The notes under the pieces: model-generated
Databases searched by the model: none
Told to the model about the DNA's origin: nothing
Seen by the model: only the letters and a program-made list of their open reading frames with translations
Made by a program: the position numbers and the translations under genes
In this document: in pieces, positions 43,736-60,938 of the stretch
Layout of the letters: each line of letters begins with the position of its first letter
Position numbering within the stretch: position 1 is the stretch's first letter
Source: an uncultured bacterium
Lineage (GTDB): Bacteria; Hydrothermota; Tepidihabitantia; Tepidihabitantales; DTDR01
NCBI GenBank assembly: GCA_938040315.1
Contig: CALHQW010000004.1
Location: forward strand, 32,700-96,699
Reading direction: 5' to 3'
Length of the DNA: 64,000 nucleotides

Positions 43736-46555
43736 TCAATTACTATAGAAAATAGTAAATTTTTTGATACTTCTATTAAAACCGGTTTCTAATACAACAA
43801 AATATAAGCCCGAAACAACTAATCTTCCTTTTTTATCTTTTCCTTCCCAATAAGCACCGATTTCTTCCAAAATTTCTTTTTTTTCGTATCTTCCGGGAGT
43901 AGTCAATTTCTTAGTATTTAACTCTTTCTCAAAAATCAATTTACCCTTTAAATTATAAATTTTCAAATTTGCCCATCGAGAAGGGTTTTTTAATCTCAAA
44001 GGAAAATAAACTTTTTCACTCTCCGTTTTTTTAATAAAAGGTTGAGGATAGATATCACCAATTTCGTCTTCCTGGTAGGAAACAAATTTTTCGGGATAAA
44101 TTTTTAATAAAGAATCAATATTAGGAATTCCATAACCTAAGGTACAAGAAGGAATACTTTCACTGGCTGTTTTGAATAACGCTTCTCTCACTTCTTCTAT
44201 TTTCCAATGTGGATGGGCTTCCAAAATTAAAGCACAGAGTCCAGCAACCAAAGCAGTAGCGGAAGAAGTTCCGATTGAATATTCAAAGGCACCATCTTCA
44301 TCAGGTTTGGCAACAACCGCATTATATGCTAAAGCAACTAAATCGGGTTTAATTTTACCATATTTAGCAGTTGGACCAGCACCACTTCCACGCCAACAAG
44401 AGGAATCAGGCATAACTCCACCAATTGTAAGAACTCCTTCTGCATCACCAGGTGCTACTAAATAAGGTTTGGGCCAAGGATATTTTAAACTATCAGAACC
44501 ACGATTTCCCATTGCGGTTACAATTATTAATCCTCTTTGAGCAGCAATGTTTGCGGCTAAAGAGGTTATTGCTGTCCTACCATCAAACATACTATCTTCA
44601 TACCAACCTCGGTATCCCAAAGAAGAAGAAATTATTTGGGCACCATTTTTTTCACACCATTCTAATCCTTTTACCCAATTATCCTCTTCAATAATATATT
44701 CGTAATATTCACCGGTTTTGTATTTATATTCTTCAGTTTTGGCAATTAAAAATTCAGCAGCCGGAGCCACTCCAATTAAATATCGAGGTGCATAACCAGC
44801 AATCAATGAAACCATTCGAGTCCCATGATAAGGCTGCTCTTTGAAATCCTCTTCTTCTTCATAATCGGTATTATCATCTCCCTGAGAATTGTAAATTAAC
44901 CAAATATCGTTATTAAATTCGTAAAGAATTGGATTATAAAGAAATTCGTTAGTATCATTAAACAAAATATTTTTACTATCAAAATCTAAGAGATAAATAT
45001 TTGAATCCATTTCATAAATTAAATAAATTTTATTTTTTATTAAAAAATCAAAATTACCTAAAAAAGCTCTATCTTTTAAAATTACTTCTTTTTCTTTCCA
45101 CCTTTCTCCAAAATTAGTTGAATAAGAATAAACTAAATTAATTAAAGGTGGATTCTCGCATTCCTTTACTAAAAGATAAATAGTATCCTTATTATTTTTG
45201 ATTTGAAAATCAGAAACATTGGAAAAAGAATTTAAACTATCTAAACGATAATTTTCTCCATCATTAGTTTTTAAATAATAAATCTTACCTTCTTTGGATA
45301 AACAAAAGATATAATAATTTAAACTATCTTTAAAAAGAATGACGGGCTTCTTTATCTTTTGATTAAAGGAATGAACCGTTTTTGTCTTTTGCCAAATAAT
45401 TTCTAAACCAATAATATTTGCTTTTTTAATCTTTAATATTGAATCTTTATATATAAAGGCAAGATACAATTTATCATCAGAATAAAATAAATAAGGTTGA
45501 CTACCGTTTTCTATTTTGAATGCATTTTGAAAATCGGTATAATAAAAATAACTAAAGTATATTTCTTTATTTTTTTCATAAGAATCTGAGCCATCAAAGG
45601 CAATAAAAGTCATATTGGTTTGGTTATTGGTGAGGGAAAAATTATGAAAAACTATCTGAGGTAAATAATAAGAAATTGATTTTATTGGTTGCCAATTATC
45701 TCTTTGGTGATAAGTATAAACGAGAGTTCTTTTTGGTATCCCTAAATATTGAGTGTCAGTTATAAAAAAGAGCGAAGGTAACTTTTCACCATTAACATTA
45801 AAAAGATAATCTACTTTTGGATTTTCTATCATTCGAAAATTTCTTAAATTTGGAATACTCTCCTTTTGAAAATTCTTAGATTTTTTAGCAAGAAAAAAAT
45901 CACCACCAGCAAGAAAATCATGCTCTTTTATTACTTTAATACCTTCTACTGCTCTATTGACCGTAGTATCGTCTGAACTTTTTCTTTTCCTTTTTAAACC
46001 GGTATCTAATAAACCTATTCTCACATTAGACCCATATATTCCTTTTTTGTGAACCTTATCTACTCCCAGCATAGCAATTTGACGATAAGAATATCCATAA
46101 AAGACAGTATCTTTATTTTCTTTTTCTAATTTTATACTTTTTGGTACTTGAAAAGTTATTGCTTTTAAAGGGCGAATATCATAGATAAAAGGTAAATTTT
46201 TTAACGAAGATAAGACCTCTTTGGGAATTTCGCAACTTACACCATTTATCCAATTAGAAACATATCTTATCTTTATCCCTAAATTTTTTAATTCTTCTAT
46301 ATATTTTTCATAAACTGGTAGATCATAAAAATCAGAAATCTTTCCTAAAGTATTTAATCTTCTTTCAATTGTTTTGGGATGAAACTTACAATCAAATTTT
46401 TCTAAAATATTATTATATTCTTTCTCAGTAAAAAAACCTTTATCAGTAAAAAGCACCCAATATCTTTCATTATTTAAATTCATCAATTTTTTATAATCCA
46501 GATTTAAAGGAGGACGATAAAAATTATAATAAAAAAATAAGAAAAATATTAACAT
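43736..46555 (-). CDS. subtilisin-like serine protease (S8) with ~400-aa BNR/sialidase-like insertion and T9SS C-terminal domain
   Basis: Asp IGLLDTGL, His HGTRMVSLIAGY, Ser GTSSATALVAGL. Region between Asp and His has repeated Y/W-rich strands and a STNFGERW (BNR-like SxDxGxTW) motif. C-terminal …GLYFVVLETG…FTIFYSN is a Por CTD. Confidence 0.85.
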   Translation of the reverse strand: MLIFFLFFYYNFYRPPLNLDYKKLMNLNNERYWVLFTDKGFFTEKEYNNILEKFDCKFHPKTIERRLNTLGKISDFYDLPVYEKYIEELKNLGIKIRYVSNWINGVSCEIPKEVLSSLKNLPFIYDIRPLKAITFQVPKSIKLEKENKDTVFYGYSYRQIAMLGVDKVHKKGIYGSNVRIGLLDTGLKRKRKSSDDTTVNRAVEGIKVIKEHDFLAGGDFFLAKKSKNFQKESIPNLRNFRMIENPKVDYLFNVNGEKLPSLFFITDTQYLGIPKRTLVYTYHQRDNWQPIKSISYYLPQIVFHNFSLTNNQTNMTFIAFDGSDSYEKNKEIYFSYFYYTDFQNAFKIENGSQPYLFYSDDKLYLAFIYKDSILKIKKANIIGLEIIWQKTKTVHSFNQKIKKPVILFKDSLNYYIFCLSKEGKIYYLKTNDGENYRLDSLNSFSNVSDFQIKNNKDTIYLLVKECENPPLINLVYSYSTNFGERWKEKEVILKDRAFLGNFDFLIKNKIYLIYEMDSNIYLLDFDSKNILFNDTNEFLYNPILYEFNNDIWLIYNSQGDDNTDYEEEEDFKEQPYHGTRMVSLIAGYAPRYLIGVAPAAEFLIAKTEEYKYKTGEYYEYIIEEDNWVKGLEWCEKNGAQIISSSLGYRGWYEDSMFDGRTAITSLAANIAAQRGLIIVTAMGNRGSDSLKYPWPKPYLVAPGDAEGVLTIGGVMPDSSCWRGSGAGPTAKYGKIKPDLVALAYNAVVAKPDEDGAFEYSIGTSSATALVAGLCALILEAHPHWKIEEVREALFKTASESIPSCTLGYGIPNIDSLLKIYPEKFVSYQEDEIGDIYPQPFIKKTESEKVYFPLRLKNPSRWANLKIYNLKGKLIFEKELNTKKLTTPGRYEKKEILEEIGAYWEGKDKKGRLVVSGLYFVVLETGFNRSIKKFTIFYSN

Positions 46556-46855: not shown

Positions 46856-46884
46856 TTTTCCTCCGTTTTTTATTATTTTTTTCT

Positions 46885-46957
46885 ACCCCGCGCAGGAGTC
46901 GAACCTGCAGCCCTCGGATTAAGAATCCGATGCTCTACCAATTTGAGCTAGCGGGGC
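46885..46957 (-). tRNA. tRNA-Lys (anticodon CUU)
   Basis: Reverse complement GCCCCGC…anticodon loop TTCTTAA…GGTTCGACTCC. Confidence 0.8.
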
Positions 46958-46968
46958 AGTAATTTAAA

Positions 46969-47042
46969 TGCGCCCGGCGCGACTCGAACGCGCAACCTAC
47001 GGGTTCGAAGCCCGGCGCTCTTTCCAATTGAGCTACGGGCGC
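46969..47042 (-). tRNA. tRNA-Arg (anticodon UCG)
   Basis: Reverse complement GCGCCCG…loop CTTCGAA…GCGTTCGAGTCGC. Confidence 0.8.
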
Positions 47043-47047
47043 AAATA

Positions 47048-47121
47048 GGTGAGCGACGGGAGTCGAACCCGCAACCCGTGGAGCCACAGTCCACTGCTCT
47101 ACCAATTGAGCTACGCTCACC
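47048..47121 (-). tRNA. tRNA-His (anticodon GUG) with encoded G-1
   Basis: Reverse complement G-GTGAGCG…loop CTGTGGC…GGTTCGACTCC…CGCTCAC-C. The G-1:C73 pair is typical of tRNA-His. Confidence 0.85.
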
Positions 47122-47131
47122 ATAAAATAAT

Positions 47132-47205
47132 CGCGCCTGGAGGGATTCGAACCCCCGACCGTCGGATTAGAAATCCGATGCTCTCTCCAACTGAGCTACA
47201 GGCGC
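47132..47205 (-). tRNA. tRNA-Arg (anticodon UCU)
   Basis: Reverse complement GCGCCTG…loop TTTCTAA…GGTTCGAATCC. Confidence 0.8.
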
Positions 47206-47208
47206 CTA

Positions 47209-47283
47209 TCGGGGAGACTGGATTTGAACCAGCGACCCCCTCGTCCCAAGCGAGGTGCGCTTGCCAGGCTGCGCTACTCCCCG
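47209..47283 (-). tRNA. tRNA-Pro (anticodon UGG)
   Basis: Reverse complement CGGGGAG…loop CTTGGGA…GGTTCAAATCC…CTCCCCG. Confidence 0.85.
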
Positions 47284-47340
47284 ATTTATATTATAAATAT
47301 AAAAAAATTTATCTTTTAGTCAAGTTGAAAATTAAACAGT

Positions 47341-47378
47341 TAAGAGGTTATATAAAGATTGAGGTTATATAAAGATTG
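47341..47378. repeat. perfect 19-bp tandem direct repeat (GAGGTTATATAAAGATTGA x2) upstream of the M14 carboxypeptidase gene
   Basis: Read directly: aagaGGTTATATAAAGATTGAGGTTATATAAAGATTGAatt. Confidence 0.6.
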
Positions 47379-47439: not shown

Positions 47440-49230
47440 ATGAAAAAAATTAATTTTATATTATTTTTTTGCCTCTTTCTTATCTCCTCTTTTTTAAAAA
47501 GTGAAGAAACAAAAATGGAAGCCAAAGTATATTTCAAAACCGCCGATGAACTTTTTACTAAAATGGGAAAATTATTCTCCCAATTAGATATTGTTACTGT
47601 TGGTGAAGAAGAGGAAAGTTATTTCCTTACAATTATTACTAACCAAAAACAAATTGAAGAAATAAAAGAAAAAGGATTTAAAATAGAAATAACTTACTAT
47701 AATATTAAAGATAAATTTAAAGAAATGACTGGAGTTGATCCAGATGATCCTGAACTCCTTAGAGACTTTGGTTATTTCTTCACTTATTGGGAAATGATTG
47801 ACACCATTCAGAGATTAGCAAATAATTTTCCTCATTTAGTAAGAATTTATGAAATTGGCAGAAGTCATCAAAATCGTCCTTTATGGTGTGTAAAAATCAG
47901 TGATTACCCTGATTCTAACGAAAATGAACCGGCTGTATTTTTCAATGCCGCTACCCATGCCCGAGAACCAATGGGAGTTTCTATACTTATTTACTATATG
48001 ACTTATCTTTTAAATAATTATGATCCAACCAACAGCAATAATTTAATAACTTGGCTTATTAACAATCGTGAAATCTATTTTGTACCTGTTATGAACCCCG
48101 ATGGCTATGTTTATAATTCCGATTCTGGGGGTGCTGCGGCTAATTGGCGAAAAAATAGAAGAATTATTCAATCTCCATATGTCGGTGTTGATTTAAATAG
48201 AAATTATGGTTATAAATGGGCATATGATAACATCGGCTCTTCACCTAATCCAAGTAGTGAAACCTACCGAGGACCGGAAAGATTTTCTGAACCAGAAACA
48301 AGAGTTGTAAGAGATTTTATGCTTTCTAAAAAAATAAGAGCCCAGATTGATTATCATACTTATGGTAGATATAATATGTATCCCTGGGGATACGACACCT
48401 TTACTCCGCCTGATGTGCGAACTTTAAGAGAGGTTGTTGATTCTTTTAGATTATACAATAATTATTCTGCCTCTCGAACTGGACAAATTGCTAAAGTTTT
48501 ATATACTGCCAATGGAAGTTCGGTCGATTGGGAATATGCTGATACTTTATGGGAAGGTGAAAGAAAATTCATTACTTATGCTTTCACAATTGAAGCTTCT
48601 ATCAACGATTTCTGGTACGGCTGGAATGATAGTGCCTTTATTAGACAAGAATGTGAAAGAAATTTAGGAGTAAATCTCTATCTTACTAAAGTTAGTGGTG
48701 CTTTTTTAGAAGTGAAAAATATAAAGATTTATGACTTTTTTGGTAATCAAGATAGTATTTTAAATCCAAATGAATCTGCTTATATTTATCTTACGATTAA
48801 AAACCGAGCAATTCATCCTCTCGATTCTGTTTATAATCTATTTATCAAACCAACTACCGAAAATCCTTATTTGATTATTATTGATACTATCTTTAATTTC
48901 CCAAATATTATAAGAAATGATACCCAAATTGGTCTCTTTAAAGTTTATGTTAAAGAAGAAATTCCATCAGAAAGTGTGATGATAAATCTTAACTGTAATT
49001 ATTTAAACGATAGTTATTTTATAAATCAAATATTAAAATTTAAAATTTTTGTCCAATCTTCTCAATTAGTAAAAGAAAAAAGAAATATTAAAAATATTAT
49101 TTCTTCTGATTTCTGTGAAAAATATTCTTTTTATTTGCCCACTGGTCAGAAATACAAAGGCAAACTTAAAAAGGGAGTCTATTTCTTTTTAAAAGAAAAT
49201 AAAGGATATAAAATTTTGATAATAAAATAG
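47440..49230 (+). CDS. M14-family zinc carboxypeptidase with T9SS C-terminal domain
   Basis: Signal peptide. HxxE zinc motif (ATHAREPMG), carboxypeptidase A-like core. C-terminal …KGKLKKGVYFFLKENKGYKILIIK is a CTD. Confidence 0.8.
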   Translation: MKKINFILFFCLFLISSFLKSEETKMEAKVYFKTADELFTKMGKLFSQLDIVTVGEEEESYFLTIITNQKQIEEIKEKGFKIEITYYNIKDKFKEMTGVDPDDPELLRDFGYFFTYWEMIDTIQRLANNFPHLVRIYEIGRSHQNRPLWCVKISDYPDSNENEPAVFFNAATHAREPMGVSILIYYMTYLLNNYDPTNSNNLITWLINNREIYFVPVMNPDGYVYNSDSGGAAANWRKNRRIIQSPYVGVDLNRNYGYKWAYDNIGSSPNPSSETYRGPERFSEPETRVVRDFMLSKKIRAQIDYHTYGRYNMYPWGYDTFTPPDVRTLREVVDSFRLYNNYSASRTGQIAKVLYTANGSSVDWEYADTLWEGERKFITYAFTIEASINDFWYGWNDSAFIRQECERNLGVNLYLTKVSGAFLEVKNIKIYDFFGNQDSILNPNESAYIYLTIKNRAIHPLDSVYNLFIKPTTENPYLIIIDTIFNFPNIIRNDTQIGLFKVYVKEEIPSESVMINLNCNYLNDSYFINQILKFKIFVQSSQLVKEKRNIKNIISSDFCEKYSFYLPTGQKYKGKLKKGVYFFLKENKGYKILIIK

Positions 49231-54197: not shown

Positions 54198-54647
54198 ATG
54201 AAATTTAAAGATATTTCTTTTATGGAAGAAGCAATTAAAGAAGCCGAAGTTGCTTTAAAAGAAAATGAAGTGCCGGTGGGAGCAGTAATAGTATATAAAA
54301 ACAAAATAATTGGGAGAGGATATAATCAAATGGAAAAATTGAAAGATCCAACTGCTCATGCTGAAATGATAGCAATTTCTTCGGCTTGTAATTATTTAAA
54401 AAACTGGCGATTAGAAGAGACAACAATCTATATTACCTGTGAACCCTGTTTAATGTGTATGGGAGCGATTTTATTATCACGAATAAAAAGAATTGTTTAC
54501 GGGACCAAAGAAGAGAATTTTGGTTTTTTCTCTAATTATCCTAATTTTTATAAAGCTATTAAAGAAAAAATTGAAATAATCAATGGAGTAAAAGAAGAAA
54601 AGACAAGAGAGTTGTTGAAAAAATTTTTTGAAGAAAAAAGAAAATGA
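54198..54647 (+). CDS. tadA: tRNA-specific adenosine deaminase
   Basis: CMP/dCMP deaminase zinc motifs HAEMIAI and CEPCLMC. 149 aa. Starts 9 nt after tRNA-Arg(ACG). Confidence 0.9.
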   Translation: MKFKDISFMEEAIKEAEVALKENEVPVGAVIVYKNKIIGRGYNQMEKLKDPTAHAEMIAISSACNYLKNWRLEETTIYITCEPCLMCMGAILLSRIKRIVYGTKEENFGFFSNYPNFYKAIKEKIEIINGVKEEKTRELLKKFFEEKRK

Positions 54648-54656
54648 TAAAAAATT

Positions 54657-54745
54657 GGAGAGGTGGCCGAGTGGACGAAGGCACGCGACTCGAAATCGCG
54701 AACCCACAAAAAAGTGGGTCGGGGGTTCGAATCCCTCCCTCTCCG
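54657..54745 (+). tRNA. tRNA-Ser (anticodon CGA), long variable arm
   Basis: GGAGAGG acceptor, D-loop GCCGAGTGG, anticodon loop CTCGAAA, long extra arm, T-loop GGTTCGAATCC. Confidence 0.85.
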
Positions 54746-54883
54746 TTTTTTATATTTATAATTTTTAATTTTCTTTTTAGTGAATCCTATGTCATAAAAA
54801 AGAAGGAAATTTTAAAAGAACCAAAATTCTATCAACAAGTAATCAGAAAATTTTCTAAATATAAATCCCGAAGAAATAAAAAT

Positions 54884-57874
54884 GTGTACTCCTTGTCTAA
54901 AAAAGTTATTTCTGGCAAAAGAAATATTGATACAATTAAAGTACTAGCACTCCGAGTAGAATTTTTAGAAGATGATGATACTTTAACAACCGGCAACGGG
55001 AAAATGGATTTAATGGGGTTTTTGAGCGAAGAAGATGGCCTTTATTACGATCCGCCTCATACCAAAAAATATTTTGAAAATCTTCTATTAGGATTAAGAA
55101 ATTATTTTTGGTATAATTCTTTGGGAAAATTACATATTGAATTTAAAGTAATGCCAGAAGGAGTATTAGAGGCTTATCAATTACCTCATCCTATAAAATA
55201 TTATGGCGATACTATGTGGAAATGGCCTAATTATGATTTTCGGGGAGTGGAAATGGGATTGTGTCGGTTAATGGAAGATGTTTTTACTATTGCTGATCAA
55301 GATACAAATATTAATTTTAGTGACTATGATTATTTTATAATTTTCCACGCTGGTTCATGTGCCCAAACTGATATAAAAGAAAATTCGCCTTTTGATTTAT
55401 GGGCGGCAACAATTAATGGTGAGGCATTAGAATATTATTTAGGAAAATCTTACATTGAAGTAGATAATGGGAAGAAAAAAATTGATATTTGTTGTATTTT
55501 ACCAGAAATGACCCGACAAGATACTTTGTATAACGGAATAATAAATTATGGTGGTATGATGGGAATGCTGGGACTTCTTGCTCATGAATTTGTGCATCTT
55601 CTCGGTGGGTATGATTTATATGATGTGAGTGGTTATTCTATGGGAGTTGGTGGTTGGAGTTTAATGGGATATGGAGGTTGGCTTGGTAGTTATGATTGCC
55701 CGCCAGGAATTATTCCTTCTTATCTTGATCCATTCCACAAAATTTTATTTGGTTTTATAGAGCCCAAGATTATTAATTTATCAACAGAGAGTTTATCGTG
55801 TTTTACAATGTGTATGGATTCTCTTTTGTTTTCCCAAAAAGAATCTTTGCCTTTTATTTACAAAATTCCAATTTCTGAAGAAGAATATTTTCTTATTGAA
55901 AATCGCCAAACTGACGTTCGTAAAAAAGATACAATTGTTGTTAAAAGAGACCATGGTATTGTTATCGGTGTTGAAGATGGTGAATATGATTTCTTTCTAC
56001 CGGGCAGCGGGATATTAATTTGGCATATTGATGAAAAAATTATTAGAGAATACGGTCCTTATAATGCAATAAATATAAATCCTGCTCATAAAGGTGTTGA
56101 TCTGATAGAAGCAGATGGAATTCAAGATTTCGATAAATTTATTTATAGGGATTATTATGAAATAGTTGGTTCTAAATATGACCCATTTTTTAAAGGTGGT
56201 TTTTTAGATAGTTTAACAGAAAATACAGAGCCTAATAGTGATAGTTATTATGGAAAAACTTATTACCGTTTTTATATCCATTCTGAACCCGATACTATTA
56301 TGTATTTCTCTTTTCAAAACAAATTATTAATAAAAGAATTGACAAAAAAATTTTCTGAACCTTTATTGTCTCCTATAGCAATAGATTTAAATTGTGATGG
56401 AAAAAAAGAAGTAATTATCCCTTGTTCAACGGGTGTAATCTATGCATACGAACCTGATGGTACTCCTTATTTGGGTTATGAAATTCTTTGCCAATTACCT
56501 TCAGAAATAACCATAGATTTATCGGTGAGTGACATTACCGGTGATAGTTTATTAGAAATTATAATTGCCTCTTATGATCGTATTGTTGTTTTGGATGCTT
56601 ATGGAAATTTTCTTTTTGATTTATTTTTAAATGGCGAAATAAAAAGTGAAGCATTACTTTATGATATTGATAACGATAATAAAAAAGAGATTATTTTGGG
56701 AACCGAGAAAGGTTATCTATATGTAATTAATAGGGATGGAAGAATAAAAGAAAATTTTCCTATAAAACTTATGGGGAAAATAAAATTAACACCGGCAATT
56801 TGTGACTCTCAAATTGTTGTTCTTACAGATGATAATCGATTATATTTAATATCTTTTGATGGGAATATAAAAACGGGCTTTCCGATTTCTCTTTCCAATT
56901 CTCCTTTCTCCTCTCCTTCATCTCCAATTGTTTTTGATTTTGATAGCGACGGAAATAAAGAAGTTCTTTTATTAATTCCCATTAATTTAAATTATAAATT
57001 ATTTATTATCACAGGGGAAGGAAATATAAAATATTCTTCAAAAGAAATTATGGAATATCCCTCTTTCTCCTCTTTAGCAATTGGCGATATAAATGATGAT
57101 GGAAATTATGATATCATTGTTTTTAGTAAAAATAAAATATTTGCCTTCAATTATAATCTTACTTTGATAAACAATTTTCCCATTGTTTTTGATTCTACCT
57201 ATCTAAAAGAAATCATTTTAGATGGTTATCTTTTTTATGAAAAAATACCTTTCTATTTCTATACTTCCCCAATTCTTAGTGATTTTGATGGTGATGAAAT
57301 ATGTGACATTTTTATTGGACTTCCTAACTTTGGTTTTTCTATAAATAATCGGCAGAAATTATTTACTAGCGGAGGAATAAAAACCGTTCCCTTTGTTACT
57401 GATTTAGATAATGATTCTTTTGTTGAATTGATTTTAACCACTAATAATAATCATTTATATGTTTATAAAACTTTTGGCAAAGAAAATGATATATTTTGGC
57501 AAACAAAATTAGCAACTACTGAAAGAGATGGCAGAGTTTTAAAGAAATTAGAAAAAAAAGTTTCTACTCCTAATAAATCAATTATTAATGATATTTATAT
57601 CTATCCTAATCCCATTACTATTAACGATGAAAGGGGTTATTTAAGATTTCGTCCAACTGTTGAAATAAAAGAAGCAAAAATTGAAATTTATGATTTTTCT
57701 TTCAAAAAGGTATGGGAAAATAAGATAAATAATTTAAAAATTACAAATCTTGAAGAAGAAGTTGAAATTGATATAAAAAAGTTTAAGACAGGCGTATATC
57801 TTTTGAAATTGGAAGTAAATTCTCAAAATAATAAAAAAGAAATAAAGTATTATAAATTTAGTGTTGTAAAATGA
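54884..57874 (+). CDS. M6-like (HExxHxxGxxD) zinc metalloprotease fused to FG-GAP beta-propeller repeats and a T9SS C-terminal domain
   Basis: HEFVHLLGGYD zinc motif. Six or more FG-GAP-like units (LNCDGKKEVII, YDIDNDNKKEIIL, DFDSDGNKEVLL, GDINDDGNYDIIV, SDFDGDEICDIFI, TDLDNDSFVELIL). C-terminal KTGVYLLKLEV… is a CTD. The start is uncertain: the ORF-track start at 54644 lies inside tRNA-Ser, and the first plausible in-frame starts are GTG 54884 or TTG 54893. No clear signal peptide is found. Confidence 0.7.
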   Translation: MYSLSKKVISGKRNIDTIKVLALRVEFLEDDDTLTTGNGKMDLMGFLSEEDGLYYDPPHTKKYFENLLLGLRNYFWYNSLGKLHIEFKVMPEGVLEAYQLPHPIKYYGDTMWKWPNYDFRGVEMGLCRLMEDVFTIADQDTNINFSDYDYFIIFHAGSCAQTDIKENSPFDLWAATINGEALEYYLGKSYIEVDNGKKKIDICCILPEMTRQDTLYNGIINYGGMMGMLGLLAHEFVHLLGGYDLYDVSGYSMGVGGWSLMGYGGWLGSYDCPPGIIPSYLDPFHKILFGFIEPKIINLSTESLSCFTMCMDSLLFSQKESLPFIYKIPISEEEYFLIENRQTDVRKKDTIVVKRDHGIVIGVEDGEYDFFLPGSGILIWHIDEKIIREYGPYNAININPAHKGVDLIEADGIQDFDKFIYRDYYEIVGSKYDPFFKGGFLDSLTENTEPNSDSYYGKTYYRFYIHSEPDTIMYFSFQNKLLIKELTKKFSEPLLSPIAIDLNCDGKKEVIIPCSTGVIYAYEPDGTPYLGYEILCQLPSEITIDLSVSDITGDSLLEIIIASYDRIVVLDAYGNFLFDLFLNGEIKSEALLYDIDNDNKKEIILGTEKGYLYVINRDGRIKENFPIKLMGKIKLTPAICDSQIVVLTDDNRLYLISFDGNIKTGFPISLSNSPFSSPSSPIVFDFDSDGNKEVLLLIPINLNYKLFIITGEGNIKYSSKEIMEYPSFSSLAIGDINDDGNYDIIVFSKNKIFAFNYNLTLINNFPIVFDSTYLKEIILDGYLFYEKIPFYFYTSPILSDFDGDEICDIFIGLPNFGFSINNRQKLFTSGGIKTVPFVTDLDNDSFVELILTTNNNHLYVYKTFGKENDIFWQTKLATTERDGRVLKKLEKKVSTPNKSIINDIYIYPNPITINDERGYLRFRPTVEIKEAKIEIYDFSFKKVWENKINNLKITNLEEEVEIDIKKFKTGVYLLKLEVNSQNNKKEIKYYKFSVVK

Positions 57875-60348
57875 ATTTTCTTTTAACAATCTTAATAATT
57901 TTTTATTTTGGACAAGGAATAAAAGATTCAATTATTAGAAATGATTTTTTAATTAATGACGATGATATTGGTGGTGCTATTCAAGAAATTCCTAAAGGTG
58001 CTTCTTATGGTGGGAAAATAGCAATTACTTTTGGTGATTTTCGAGATGGTAATTGTTCACCTTATTTTTTAATTCTTAACTTAAATGGTGAAAGATTAAT
58101 TGAGGAGAAAAGAATCAGCGACGATGGTGGATTAAGATGGAAAGGTGAACCTGCCGTTGCTTTTTTTAATAACCGAATTGTAATTAGTTGGGAAGATAGA
58201 AGAAATTGTAATTCTGATATTTATTATCAGGTTTATGATTCCTTGGGAAATGAAATTTCTAATAACCGAAAGGCAAACGATGATAATACTCAAAAAGACC
58301 AAAGAGGAGTATCAATAGCCTTCTTACCCGACAGAAAATTTGTAATTGTTTGGGAAGATTGGCGAAATGATTACGGTGATATTTATGCCCAAATCTTCGA
58401 TGAAAACGGCAATAAAATTGGTAATAATTTTCGAGTTAATGATGACCCTATTGGATTTGCTTGGCAATATTCGGCACATATTGGTGTAAAAACTAACGGA
58501 GAGTTTATTGTTGTTTGGGAAGATGGTAGAAACGGCAACTGGGATATTTATTGCCAAATCTTTGATTTTAATGGAAATCCTATCGGTAGTAATTTTAAGA
58601 TTAATGATGATAATACTCCTTCTTGGCAATTTTCTCCACGAATTTATGTTAATAAAAATAATTATTGGTTAGTTGTATGGGAAGATGAAAGAAACAATAA
58701 TTGGGATATTTATGGTCAAATTTTCGATTCTTTAAATAGAAGGGTAGGTAGCAATTTTATTATCAATGATGATAATACTTCGAGTAACCAAAATTTACCA
58801 AGTTGTGCAGCTGATACTTTTGGTAACTTTATTATTACCTTTGTTTGTAATCGAAGGAGCAATCCCGATATTTACAAACAAAGAATAACCCAAGAAGGAA
58901 TAAGGATTGGAAATAATGAATTAGTAAATGATGATGCTTCTAACTCTCTTCAAACTTCACCTTGGGTAGTTTATCTTTCTAATAACCATCATCTAATTGT
59001 GTGGCAAGATAAAAGAGAAGGAAATTATGATATTTTTGCCCAATTTTATGATGGAAATAATATAAAAATCGGTAACAATTTTAAAATCAATAGTGATATA
59101 TTTTCCTCTCACCAAAGGTGCCCATTTATTTCCGCAAATCAGGAATTCTTCGGAGTCTGTTGGGAAGATGAACGTGAAGAAAATTGTCATATCTATGCTA
59201 CCTTTTTTGATACATTAGGGAATTTTTTAACCACTAATAAGAAAATCAGTGAAAGTAATTATAACTTTTTTCCTTGTTTAGCAATTAATTCTTATAACAA
59301 AGCCATTATAAGTTGGGTAACTGTAAGAGGAGCAGATACTGATATCTATGGCCAAATAATAACTCCTTTCGGGAATGTAATCGGTAATAATTTTAAAATA
59401 AATGATGATACCAATAACAGTTTTCAAGATTGGCCTATTGTGGCAAGTTCTCAAGATGAAAAATTTTTAGTAATTTGGACCGATTACCGTGAAGGAAGAG
59501 GAAAAATTTATGGGCAATTTATCGATTCTCTCGGCAACAAAATTGGGAATAATTTTAAAATAAGTGACAATAATGAAGGAAATGCTTTGTATGGATTTGT
59601 AACTTTTGCTTTTACCATTCCAATATATGTTTGGATGGATAACCGATTAGGTGAGTATAATATTTATTTAAAAATTGATAATAACCCAAGTATTTTGGTA
59701 AACGAAGAAACAAATGGTTTTCAAGGTTATCCTACTTGTGCCTTTAAAGATTCAATAATTGTGGTTAGTTGGGAAGATGAAAAAAATGGAAATACTGATA
59801 TTTATTGCCAAATTTTTAAAATTAATGGTGAACGGGTCGGTAGAAATATCTTAGTAAATGACGATAATACTAACTATGATCAATACTCACCTTCCGTCAC
59901 TTTTACTAACGATGGTGAATTTATTATTACCTTTTCTGATTTTAGAAAAGGATACGGCGATGTCGACATTTATGCTCAGAGATTTGATTATTATGGCAAT
60001 AAGATTGGTAATAATCGATTAGTTCATGTACCTGATTTGTTTTTTGGGAATAACCAATGGACGTTATCCCAAAGTGTTTCAATAATAAATGATAATATTT
60101 CTTTTTGTTGGGTAGATAATAGAAGACATAAAGGTTGGGATATTTATGCAAAAATTGTAAAGAAGAATTATTTATTTTTACAAGAAAATAAGAAAACGGA
60201 AATTATTTCCCGATTAGATTTTCAAAAGAAAGAAATTTTTTCAATAATTGGAAAGGTTGATAAAAAAAATTTAAAAAGTGGTATCTATTTTATAAAAAAA
60301 GGTAAGGAGTTTAAAAAAGTTATTTATTTAAAAGGAGAAAAAAAATGA
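57871..60348 (+). CDS. secreted tandem-repeat protein (about 13 copies of a ~55-aa WEDxRNGNxDIYxQxFDxxGNxIGxNFxVNDD unit) with T9SS C-terminal domain
   Basis: Signal peptide MNFLLTILIIFYFGQG. Repeat units read directly in the translation. C-terminal …KSGIYFIKKGKEFKKVIYLKGEKK is a CTD. ATGA overlap with the upstream metalloprotease gene. Confidence 0.65.
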   Translation: MNFLLTILIIFYFGQGIKDSIIRNDFLINDDDIGGAIQEIPKGASYGGKIAITFGDFRDGNCSPYFLILNLNGERLIEEKRISDDGGLRWKGEPAVAFFNNRIVISWEDRRNCNSDIYYQVYDSLGNEISNNRKANDDNTQKDQRGVSIAFLPDRKFVIVWEDWRNDYGDIYAQIFDENGNKIGNNFRVNDDPIGFAWQYSAHIGVKTNGEFIVVWEDGRNGNWDIYCQIFDFNGNPIGSNFKINDDNTPSWQFSPRIYVNKNNYWLVVWEDERNNNWDIYGQIFDSLNRRVGSNFIINDDNTSSNQNLPSCAADTFGNFIITFVCNRRSNPDIYKQRITQEGIRIGNNELVNDDASNSLQTSPWVVYLSNNHHLIVWQDKREGNYDIFAQFYDGNNIKIGNNFKINSDIFSSHQRCPFISANQEFFGVCWEDEREENCHIYATFFDTLGNFLTTNKKISESNYNFFPCLAINSYNKAIISWVTVRGADTDIYGQIITPFGNVIGNNFKINDDTNNSFQDWPIVASSQDEKFLVIWTDYREGRGKIYGQFIDSLGNKIGNNFKISDNNEGNALYGFVTFAFTIPIYVWMDNRLGEYNIYLKIDNNPSILVNEETNGFQGYPTCAFKDSIIVVSWEDEKNGNTDIYCQIFKINGERVGRNILVNDDNTNYDQYSPSVTFTNDGEFIITFSDFRKGYGDVDIYAQRFDYYGNKIGNNRLVHVPDLFFGNNQWTLSQSVSIINDNISFCWVDNRRHKGWDIYAKIVKKNYLFLQENKKTEIISRLDFQKKEIFSIIGKVDKKNLKSGIYFIKKGKEFKKVIYLKGEKK

Positions 60349-60938
60349 TTTTTCCTTTGGTTACTTATATTTTTAGTTTAAAATTTCAATTTTTTGCCTT
60401 ATCTTCATTAATCGTTCCTGGTAGCGGTGAATTATTTTTGAAAGAAAAGAAAGGTGAATATTTTATCTATCCTGACATATTATTTCTCTCTTTTTATAGG
60501 GTCTTTAATTTCTTAGCAAAAAGAGATAATCAAAACGCCAAAATTTTTGCCTGTCAGTATGCAAAAGCAAATTTTTCCCAAGAGGAAAAATATTTTAATC
60601 TTTTAGAAATTTATTCTTCTAACGAAGAATATAACGAAGACGTTTTAAGGGATGCACGAAATCTTTTTCCTGATGATCCAGAAAAACAGAAAGAGTATTG
60701 GAGGAAAAATGGTTATTTTGGTAATAATGCTTGGCATTGGGAAAATGATTCTTTAAGACTTAATTATTTTAGAAAAAGAAGAGAGGTAAGAAATAAAAAA
60801 ATGATTTCTTCTTTTTTTCTTTCTGGTTCGATTTTATTAAGGATTAGTTCTTTTTTCAACTGTTTATTTCTTAATAAAAATAAAAATCTCTCGTTAGAAT
60901 TTCTTCCTTGGGCTTTTAAAATAAGTTATAATTTTTAA
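60345..60938 (+). CDS. hypothetical protein
   Basis: 197 aa with hydrophobic N- and C-terminal segments, no motifs. 4-bp overlap with the repeat-protein gene. Confidence 0.3.
   Translation: MIFPLVTYIFSLKFQFFALSSLIVPGSGELFLKEKKGEYFIYPDILFLSFYRVFNFLAKRDNQNAKIFACQYAKANFSQEEKYFNLLEIYSSNEEYNEDVLRDARNLFPDDPEKQKEYWRKNGYFGNNAWHWENDSLRLNYFRKRREVRNKKMISSFFLSGSILLRISSFFNCLFLNKNKNLSLEFLPWAFKISYNF

Follow-up and report, generated by a model that had tools for sequence, protein, structure and literature searches.

Closest Described Systems

In PorZ of Porphyromonas gingivalis, the N-terminal strand of the chain serves as strand β4 of the last blade of propeller 2, after which propeller 1, propeller 2, and a C-terminal domain (CTD) follow (PMC5121618). 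The same plan, namely a signal peptide, two seven-bladed β-propellers, and a type IX secretion system (T9SS) CTD, connected in the same chain topology as in the PorZ structure (PDB 5M11), is predicted here for a protein of 825 amino acids (aa), referred to below as the WOR-3 protein or the propeller protein. It is encoded in a 64,000-nucleotide stretch of DNA, termed the window, from an uncultured bacterium of candidate division WOR-3, placed by GTDB in the Hydrothermota (assembly GCA_938040315.1, contig CALHQW010000004.1, positions 32,700 to 96,699 of the forward strand), and all gene coordinates given below are those of the window. The WOR-3 protein differs from PorZ in the type of its repeat and shares no sequence similarity with the PorZ propellers, while its family, unlike PorZ, is multi-copy and also occurs outside T9SS organisms. 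The PorZ model NF052228 gave no match in the 825-aa protein, and in the homologue P0024 only the CTD was matched.

Other described systems resemble the protein in fold; the statements on fold made here are predictions from an AlphaFold2 run with 119 sequences and not an experimental structure. The best global matches of the full-length model are GH74 xyloglucanases, with template modelling (TM) scores of 0.47–0.53 over ~850 columns, followed by DDB1, Elp2, and EMC1, and TolB structures are also found among the fold matches. The GH74 enzymes (7kn8, 6mgl) share with the WOR-3 protein the side-by-side pair of seven-bladed propellers, but the identity is only 8–10% and the root-mean-square deviation (rmsd) is ~8.7 Å, so the angle between the propellers differs. 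Membership of GH74 was not indicated by any Pfam, NCBIfam, or PDB sequence match, and the likeness, at a TM of ~0.5, is one of fold only. When the first propeller is taken by itself, its best matches are the CV39L lectin (6gxs; TM 0.74–0.76, rmsd 3.9 Å) and the propeller of CylK (7roo; TM 0.76, rmsd 4.6 Å), although the identity to the WOR-3 propeller is 9–12%, and GH145, PL25, and PL42 are matched at TM 0.60–0.67. A lectin-like function suggested by such a comparison would be only an analogy.

The Repeat Unit and the Predicted Double Propeller

The open reading frame (ORF) of the propeller protein (57871..60348, plus strand) has exactly the coordinates given by the first-pass annotation, which had been made from the sequence alone, and the periodicity claimed there (near 54–57 residues) was borne out as well, at about 54 residues. 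Residue identity within the protein reaches 0.205 at lag 54, compared with a maximum of 0.106 in 200 shuffles, and two nonadjacent two-unit segments align with each other in BLASTP at E = 1.6e-21. A hidden Markov model (HMM) of the unit, seeded with nine copies and rebuilt from 824 units of 120 homologues, detected eleven strong units, three degenerate ones (residues 48–100, 583–627, and 742–766, the last being a half-unit), and an N-terminal half-unit at residues 20–35, which corresponds to the second half of the model. The protein is composed of 13 full units and one unit split between residues 20–35 and 742–766, which gives 14 blades. Homologues likewise contain 13–15 units.

The family consensus of the unit reads GNFVIVWxDxRNGNxDIYAQRYDxxGxPxGxNFxVNDDxxxxxQxxPxVAxD or, in a shorter rendering, FVIxWxDxRxGNxDIYAQRYDxxGxPxGxNFxVNDDxxxxxQxxPxxA. 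It had been proposed that the WED, DIY, and NDD triplets recur in every unit, which proved to be overstated, as WED is present in 6, W.D in 10, DIY in 9, and NDD in 7 of the 14 units; the triplets are far more regular in the family consensus than in the 825-aa copy. No tandem repetition was found at the DNA level in the gene, which implies that the units are old and diverged, and a recent amplification of units in the DNA was rejected on the same ground. No paralogue of the protein was found in the window, where it is present as one copy. A 101-aa antisense ORF (58324-58629, minus strand) lies inside the gene and is most likely a by-product of the codon pattern of the repeat rather than a gene.

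According to the full-length model (mean predicted local distance difference test score, pLDDT, 93.1; predicted TM score, pTM, 0.86), every unit folds into four β-strands, and the protein is predicted to form two tandem seven-bladed β-propellers from 14 four-stranded units of 54 residues. Within each structural blade, QxxPxhA is the first strand, and hhhhWxD, DIYxQxh, and xGxNFxh come after it in this order. Residues 21–27 at the N-terminus form a strand of the fourth type, while the strands at the far end of the chain (742–749 and 757–764) belong to the second and third; therefore, the N-terminal strand closes blade 14. This "velcro" strand is contained in the N-terminal half-unit (57928..57975, plus strand; aa 20–35, SIIRNDFLINDDDIGG), which was delimited by the unit HMM and the model strand and whose residues D25, F26, and N29 are almost invariant across the family. 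Propeller 1, comprising blades 1–7, is encoded by 57976..59103 (plus strand; aa 36–411), and its residues, modelled alone, gave a closed seven-bladed propeller with a pLDDT of 92.7 and a pTM of 0.92, a separate fold that is in line with the TM matches described above. Propeller 2, comprising blades 8–14, is encoded by 59104..60168 (plus strand; aa 412–766) and was delimited by the unit HMM and the full model; its blades 8, 10, and 11 are degenerate, and its blade 14 takes its outermost strand from the N-terminus.

Four-stranded blades, seven blades per ring, and velcro closure, by which a seven-bladed propeller is recognized, are thus all present in the model, twice in tandem. The first-pass annotation had left the choice between a β-propeller and a β-solenoid open; the four strands per unit and the confident model favor the blade-type propeller, and the solenoid was rejected, the structural matches being propellers as well. 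A single 14-bladed ring was also rejected, since half of the protein closes alone, the global matches are double propellers, and the relatives carry units in multiples of seven.

Across 119 orthologues, it is mainly the framework of the repeat that is conserved, and no single catalytic-looking constellation of residues emerged. Blade-specific conserved residues are concentrated in blades 2–4, 8, 13, and 14, close to where the ring closes and the propellers meet, and include the motifs EDRRxCNSD (blade 2), WEDERN (blade 8), and DNRRHKGW (blade 14) together with N715.

Relationship to Catalogued Propeller Repeats

The repeat had been described as unrecognized and as distinct from WD40, YD, FG-GAP, BNR, Kelch, and NHL. 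None of these six families gave a Pfam match at E<=1 in the 825-aa protein, and no Pfam model covers the repeat, the sole match of the protein being a sub-threshold one to Por_Secre_tail. Sequence searches of the solved structures, run with the single protein and with the profiles of the family and of the unit, matched the CTD only and found nothing related to the propeller part. A different result was obtained with TIGR04275 ("beta_prop_Msarc", a β-propeller repeat of NCBIfam), whose curated cut-off of 85 bits applies to the whole-protein score: the 825-aa protein reaches 84.4 bits in seven stretches, and among ten diverse homologues six pass (109.5–171.7 bits) and four remain below (32.8–83.9 bits), with up to 13 stretches matched. 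The repeat is therefore not an unrecognized one, although the 825-aa copy itself falls just under the cut-off. As the ground on which its claim should be dropped, the first-pass annotation had given a confident assignment to a named family with known function; what was found is a named model without an assigned function. A literature search on TIGR04275 or beta_prop_Msarc found no publication.

The likeness to TIGR04275 proteins resides in the core hhhhWxDxRxGxxDIY, which forms strands B and C, and the alignments extend only over about positions 8–35 (or 20–35) of the 40 in the model. A match over the full unit of ~40 residues was not obtained; in contrast to the model, the WOR-3 unit spans 54 residues and contains an extra strand and loop, GxNFxVNDDxxxxxQ. 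The links to other models are weaker. PD40 (PF07676, gathering threshold 20.9 bits) gave no match at E<=1 in the 825-aa protein but passes in two of the ten homologues (P0009, 29.6 bits; P0072, 27.2 bits), BNR_4 (PF15892) passes in P0072 and P0044, and TolB, delta-60 repeat, and PDIAV_lipo matches in homologues stay below cut-off. The PD40/TolB pattern (PF07676; NF002183) P..(S/A).DG..hhF.s.R.G...iY..d.dG parallels PSVAxDxxGNFVIVWxDxRNGNxDIYAQRYDxxG of the WOR-3 unit, although TolB propellers are six-bladed and periplasmic and the PD40 model has 38 positions as opposed to a period of ~54 residues. In our own reading of this side-by-side comparison, the unit would follow the PD40 pattern and add to it a fourth strand and the long NDDxxxxxQ linker. 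The match to the TIGR04275 core, together with the weaker PD40, BNR_4, and TolB links, argues that the repeat is a longer and divergent variant of the catalogued TIGR04275/PD40 class of propeller repeats and no new kind of protein.

Distribution, Unit Numbers, and Fusion Partners

An indexed search for the full-length family returned 1,956 matches, of which 120 were listed; nearly all of those listed are 820–1,060 aa long with more than 80% query coverage, their named sources include candidate division WOR-3, Calditrichota, and Zixibacteria, and the best of them are proteins of WOR-3 metagenome-assembled genomes with 81–83% identity. The exhaustive search with the unit profile reached much further: at E<=1e-3 it returned 45,984 representative clusters, of which 10,263 remain at E<=1e-30. 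A scan of reference genomes with an alignment of 14 closer sequences detected relatives in, among others, WOR-3, Latescibacterota, Gemmatimonadota, Calditrichota, Zixibacteria, Ignavibacteria, Bacteroidales, and KSB1, and further in Cloacimonadota, Poribacteria, Planctomycetota, Chloroflexota, Cyanobacteria, Pseudomonas, and Thermoplasmata archaea. At least three copies of the family are present in the closest WOR-3 genome.

Unit numbers in the relatives cluster at about 7, 14, 21, and 28 and rise up to 56. The largest number belongs to P0121 (7,213 aa, 56 units), and a cyanobacterial ORF of 4,204 aa (L062 1-12612) contains ~30. At one WOR-3 locus (L051 4957-8088), two adjacent ORFs of 523 and 520 aa bear seven units each, the result of a frameshift or of a double propeller having been split.

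The partners fused to the repeat fall into export or anchoring elements (T9SS type A and type B CTDs, dockerin, and RTX or type I secretion system (T1SS) signals), spacers grouped as immunoglobulin-like (Big_5, Big_13, fn3, TIG, cadherin, He_PIG, and PKD), and other propellers (FG-GAP and BNR/sortilin), whereas no fused catalytic domain was seen across the fusion proteins surveyed. Giant adhesin-like proteins of the RTX/T1SS type from Pseudomonas fluorescens (L057 34-5970) and Kuenenia (L079), which also have cadherin and He_PIG domains, contain the repeat, from which it follows that the module has moved between secretion systems. P0144 and P0174 each join a 14-unit module to a T9SS or similar tail and to FG-GAP propellers, the kind also carried by the upstream neighbor of the propeller gene; by Rosetta-stone reasoning, the two kinds of propeller may work together.

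Export Signals

A putative Sec signal peptide (57871..57927, plus strand; aa 1–19, MNFLLTILIIFYFGQGIKD) is indicated by the hydrophobic N-terminus of the protein. Its presence, asserted earlier, is plausible in view of a hydrophobic segment at residues 2–13 and a helix of low pLDDT at residues 2–18 in the AlphaFold2 model, and homologues also begin with MK followed by a hydrophobic stretch.

At the other end, residues 767–825 and the stop codon (60169..60348, plus strand) make up a short C-terminal β domain that appears to be a reduced T9SS type-A CTD. The case for the Por-type domain announced by the first-pass annotation is weaker than it implied. PF18962 scores 15.7 bits against a cut-off of 27 and aligns at profile positions 47–65 only, TIGR04183 (cut-off 23 bits) does not match the protein, and instead of a complete β-sandwich of ~75 residues with a score above cut-off, a domain of ~50 aa was found, with a pLDDT of 58–85. 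In the CTD alignment, the PNP strand and a loop of ~17 residues are missing from the 825-aa copy and its three closest orthologues, P0001–P0003, while the C-terminal 59 residues keep the …G…GIYFh…KKhIh end of the type-A CTD. Orthologues at ~43% identity possess the full CTD, most homologues pass the CTD cut-offs, and the family profile matches solved T9SS CTDs, for instance 8glk_D, at E = 2e-4. The shortened form in the P0001–P0003 sub-clade may be either a minimal functional CTD or a decaying export signal. As far as these motifs can tell, the 825-aa protein is a probable T9SS cargo, and export of this particular copy by the T9SS is plausible but uncertain. Among the ORFs of the window that were scanned, none was identified as a T9SS machinery gene, and a literature search on WOR-3 plus T9SS found only general T9SS papers.

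Neighboring Genes and Synteny

The gene immediately upstream (54644..57874, plus strand) encodes an M6-like metallopeptidase with an FG-GAP propeller and a T9SS CTD, as assigned by the Pfam models Peptidase_M6, FG-GAP_3, and Por_Secre_tail; TIGR04183 passes, and NF052323 gives 335.7 bits against a cut-off of 600. Although its best NCBIfam match, below cut-off, is named "T9SS-dependent M6-like inactivated metalloprotease", the zinc motif HExxHxxGxxD (HEFVHLLGGYD) is intact and is conserved in all 12 full-length syntenic orthologues. Inactivation was accordingly rejected for the WOR-3 clade, whose M6-like peptidase, judged by this motif, looks catalytically competent. A tRNA-Ser(CGA) gene (54656-54746, plus strand) lies inside the called ORF, the N-terminal "GGRVDEGTRLEIANPQKSGSGVRIPPSP" of which is translated tRNA; therefore, the real start of the M6-like gene is downstream of 54746. 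Directly after the tRNA gene, a signal-like hydrophobic FFIFIIFNFLF is encoded, with no in-frame ATG, GTG, or TTG close by.

The ATG of the propeller gene overlaps the stop codon of the M6-like gene (ATGA; junction AAATGAAT), as the first-pass annotation had stated and as was seen directly at the junction. Downstream, a third cluster gene from the ORF list (60345..60938, plus strand; 197 aa) overlaps the propeller gene by 4 nt at start and stop. Its ends are hydrophobic, no Pfam or NCBIfam model matches it, and 12 syntenic loci have a homologue in the corresponding place (E 1e-32 to 1e-107); it is probably a third operon member. Promoter and terminator scans gave matches only at chance level.

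The block tadA, tRNA-Ser, M6, propeller, ~200-aa ORF, and nadB is kept in every orthologue at >=38% identity, and the junctions from M6 to propeller are 4-nt overlaps or 0–3-nt spacers, a tightness that persists down to 38–43% identity. The pairing with M6 is specific to the WOR-3 clade and no property of the whole family. The proposal that the two neighboring proteins act together is thus favored by the synteny, the tight junctions, and the FG-GAP fusions elsewhere, but its range is confined to this clade.

Two further peptidases are encoded nearby, an S8 subtilase of 938 aa (43736-46555, minus strand) and an M14 carboxypeptidase of 596 aa (47440-49230, plus strand), which is consistent with a protein-degrading lifestyle. 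Between them, five tRNA genes (Lys, Arg, His, Arg, and Pro) are arranged at 46883-47284 on the minus strand, and a 107-aa ORF (47049..47372, plus strand) that overlaps this cluster on the opposite strand is probably spurious.

Proposed Function and Alternatives

We consider it an even chance that the 825-aa protein is a non-catalytic extracellular binding platform, because the fusions of the family comprise only export or anchoring elements, immunoglobulin-like domains, and propellers, and because conservation reveals no catalytic constellation. The chain would run from the signal peptide through the strand closing the last blade, propeller 1, and propeller 2 to the shortened T9SS-type CTD, and the double propeller would act as a multivalent non-catalytic binder, either at the surface of the cell or in the surrounding medium. 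Judging by strand topology, the loop between strands B and C (xRNGNx) and the linker from D to A (NDDxxxxxQ) may, in all blades, point to one and the same "entry" face, so that each propeller would present a ring of conserved Asp, Asn, and Arg framework residues with variable five-residue loops between them, a layout that would suit the binding of a polymer, be it a glycan or a protein. The WOR-3 double propeller probably acts with the co-transcribed and probably translationally coupled M6-like metallopeptidase/FG-GAP protein, by capturing or presenting its substrate or by holding the enzyme at the surface.

Several points weigh against a binding platform of this kind. The placement of the motifs on one face follows from strand topology only; many propellers with the same nearest structural neighbors are enzymes (PL24/25/42, GH145, GH74, and CylK); and, with a CTD that is shortened and scores below threshold, the 825-aa copy has an uncertain export route. 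The M6 pairing, moreover, is absent in relatives from Calditrichota, Zixibacteria, and an unclassified bacterium and in a dockerin-bearing form, and the syntenic block holds housekeeping genes, such that its conservation may partly be plain collinearity. Carried to its end, the last point would make the protein a stand-alone surface adhesin or coat protein, adjacent to M6 through clade-wide genome collinearity only, which we regard as unlikely. The synteny does reach the housekeeping genes tadA, tRNA-Ser, nadB, and xerC, distant homologues have unrelated neighbors, and the fusion partners of the module are typical of adhesins; yet against mere collinearity stand the stop and start codons that overlap by 4 nt or are spaced by 0–3 nt down to 38–43% identity, and the FG-GAP propeller fusions elsewhere. 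The propellers might instead be catalytic themselves. The protein would then be a polysaccharide lyase, a hydrolase, or some other enzyme of propeller fold, and its active site would lie either within the inter-propeller cleft, the arrangement of GH74, or on a single entry face, that of PL25, PL42, GH145, and CylK. This is judged less likely still. The nearest whole-protein neighbors are indeed the GH74 xyloglucanases, single-propeller neighbors include CylK, the PL25 ulvan lyase, PL42, GH145, and GH93 (TM 0.56–0.76), and blade-specific conserved residues such as those listed above exist. Fold matches of this order, however, are expected from any seven-bladed propeller, the identity to these enzymes is 8–12% with no sequence-profile link to solved enzymes found, the 7 to 56 units per protein in giant adhesin-like proteins would be unusual for catalytic domains, and the blade-specific residues gather where the ring closes and where the propellers meet.

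The resemblance to PorZ raises another reading, according to which the protein would do the work of PorZ, as a part of the T9SS attachment complex that delivers a surface glycolipid to the sortase, in lineages for which a PorZ recognizable by sequence has not been identified. The identical domain plan and topology, with an N-terminal strand as β4 of the last blade of propeller 2, 7+7 blades, and a CTD, speak for it, as do an orthologue that is conserved and syntenic within the clade and an atypical CTD, given that the CTD of PorZ stays uncleaved. On balance such a role is highly improbable: the NCBIfam model T9SS_PorZ has no match to the propeller part, PorZ is missing from the top 50 structural matches, the closest genome contains at least three copies, the module also occurs with dockerins and RTX/T1SS signals in organisms lacking the T9SS, and no T9SS machinery genes are adjacent at the loci examined. 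Beyond the binding platform, which we prefer, a bolder extension would see a huge family in which the conserved acidic framework of the entry face and the variable loops make up a programmable multivalent recognition surface, and whose WOR-3 member would be either a dedicated substrate-capture subunit in a surface peptidase system of two proteins or a PorZ-like glycolipid carrier for the T9SS outside Bacteroidota; we hold this to be quite improbable.

Significance

Nothing known is overturned by the WOR-3 protein, which represents an uncharacterized branch of a familiar fold and a familiar export system. The repeat is nevertheless present in about 46,000 clusters from many bacterial phyla and some archaea, often in giant surface proteins, and constitutes a very large family without a Pfam model, a solved structure, or an assigned function, such that the value of the analysis lies mainly in annotation. 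A clean definition, consisting of a 54-residue unit, a seven-blade module, and a PorZ-like 2×7 topology, would help to annotate many proteins of uncultured lineages that are at present termed "hypothetical" or "T9SS sorting domain-containing". Meanwhile, the pairing, conserved in WOR-3, with an M6-like peptidase that appears to be active offers a testable hypothesis on how extracellular proteolysis may be organized in protein-degrading WOR-3 bacteria.

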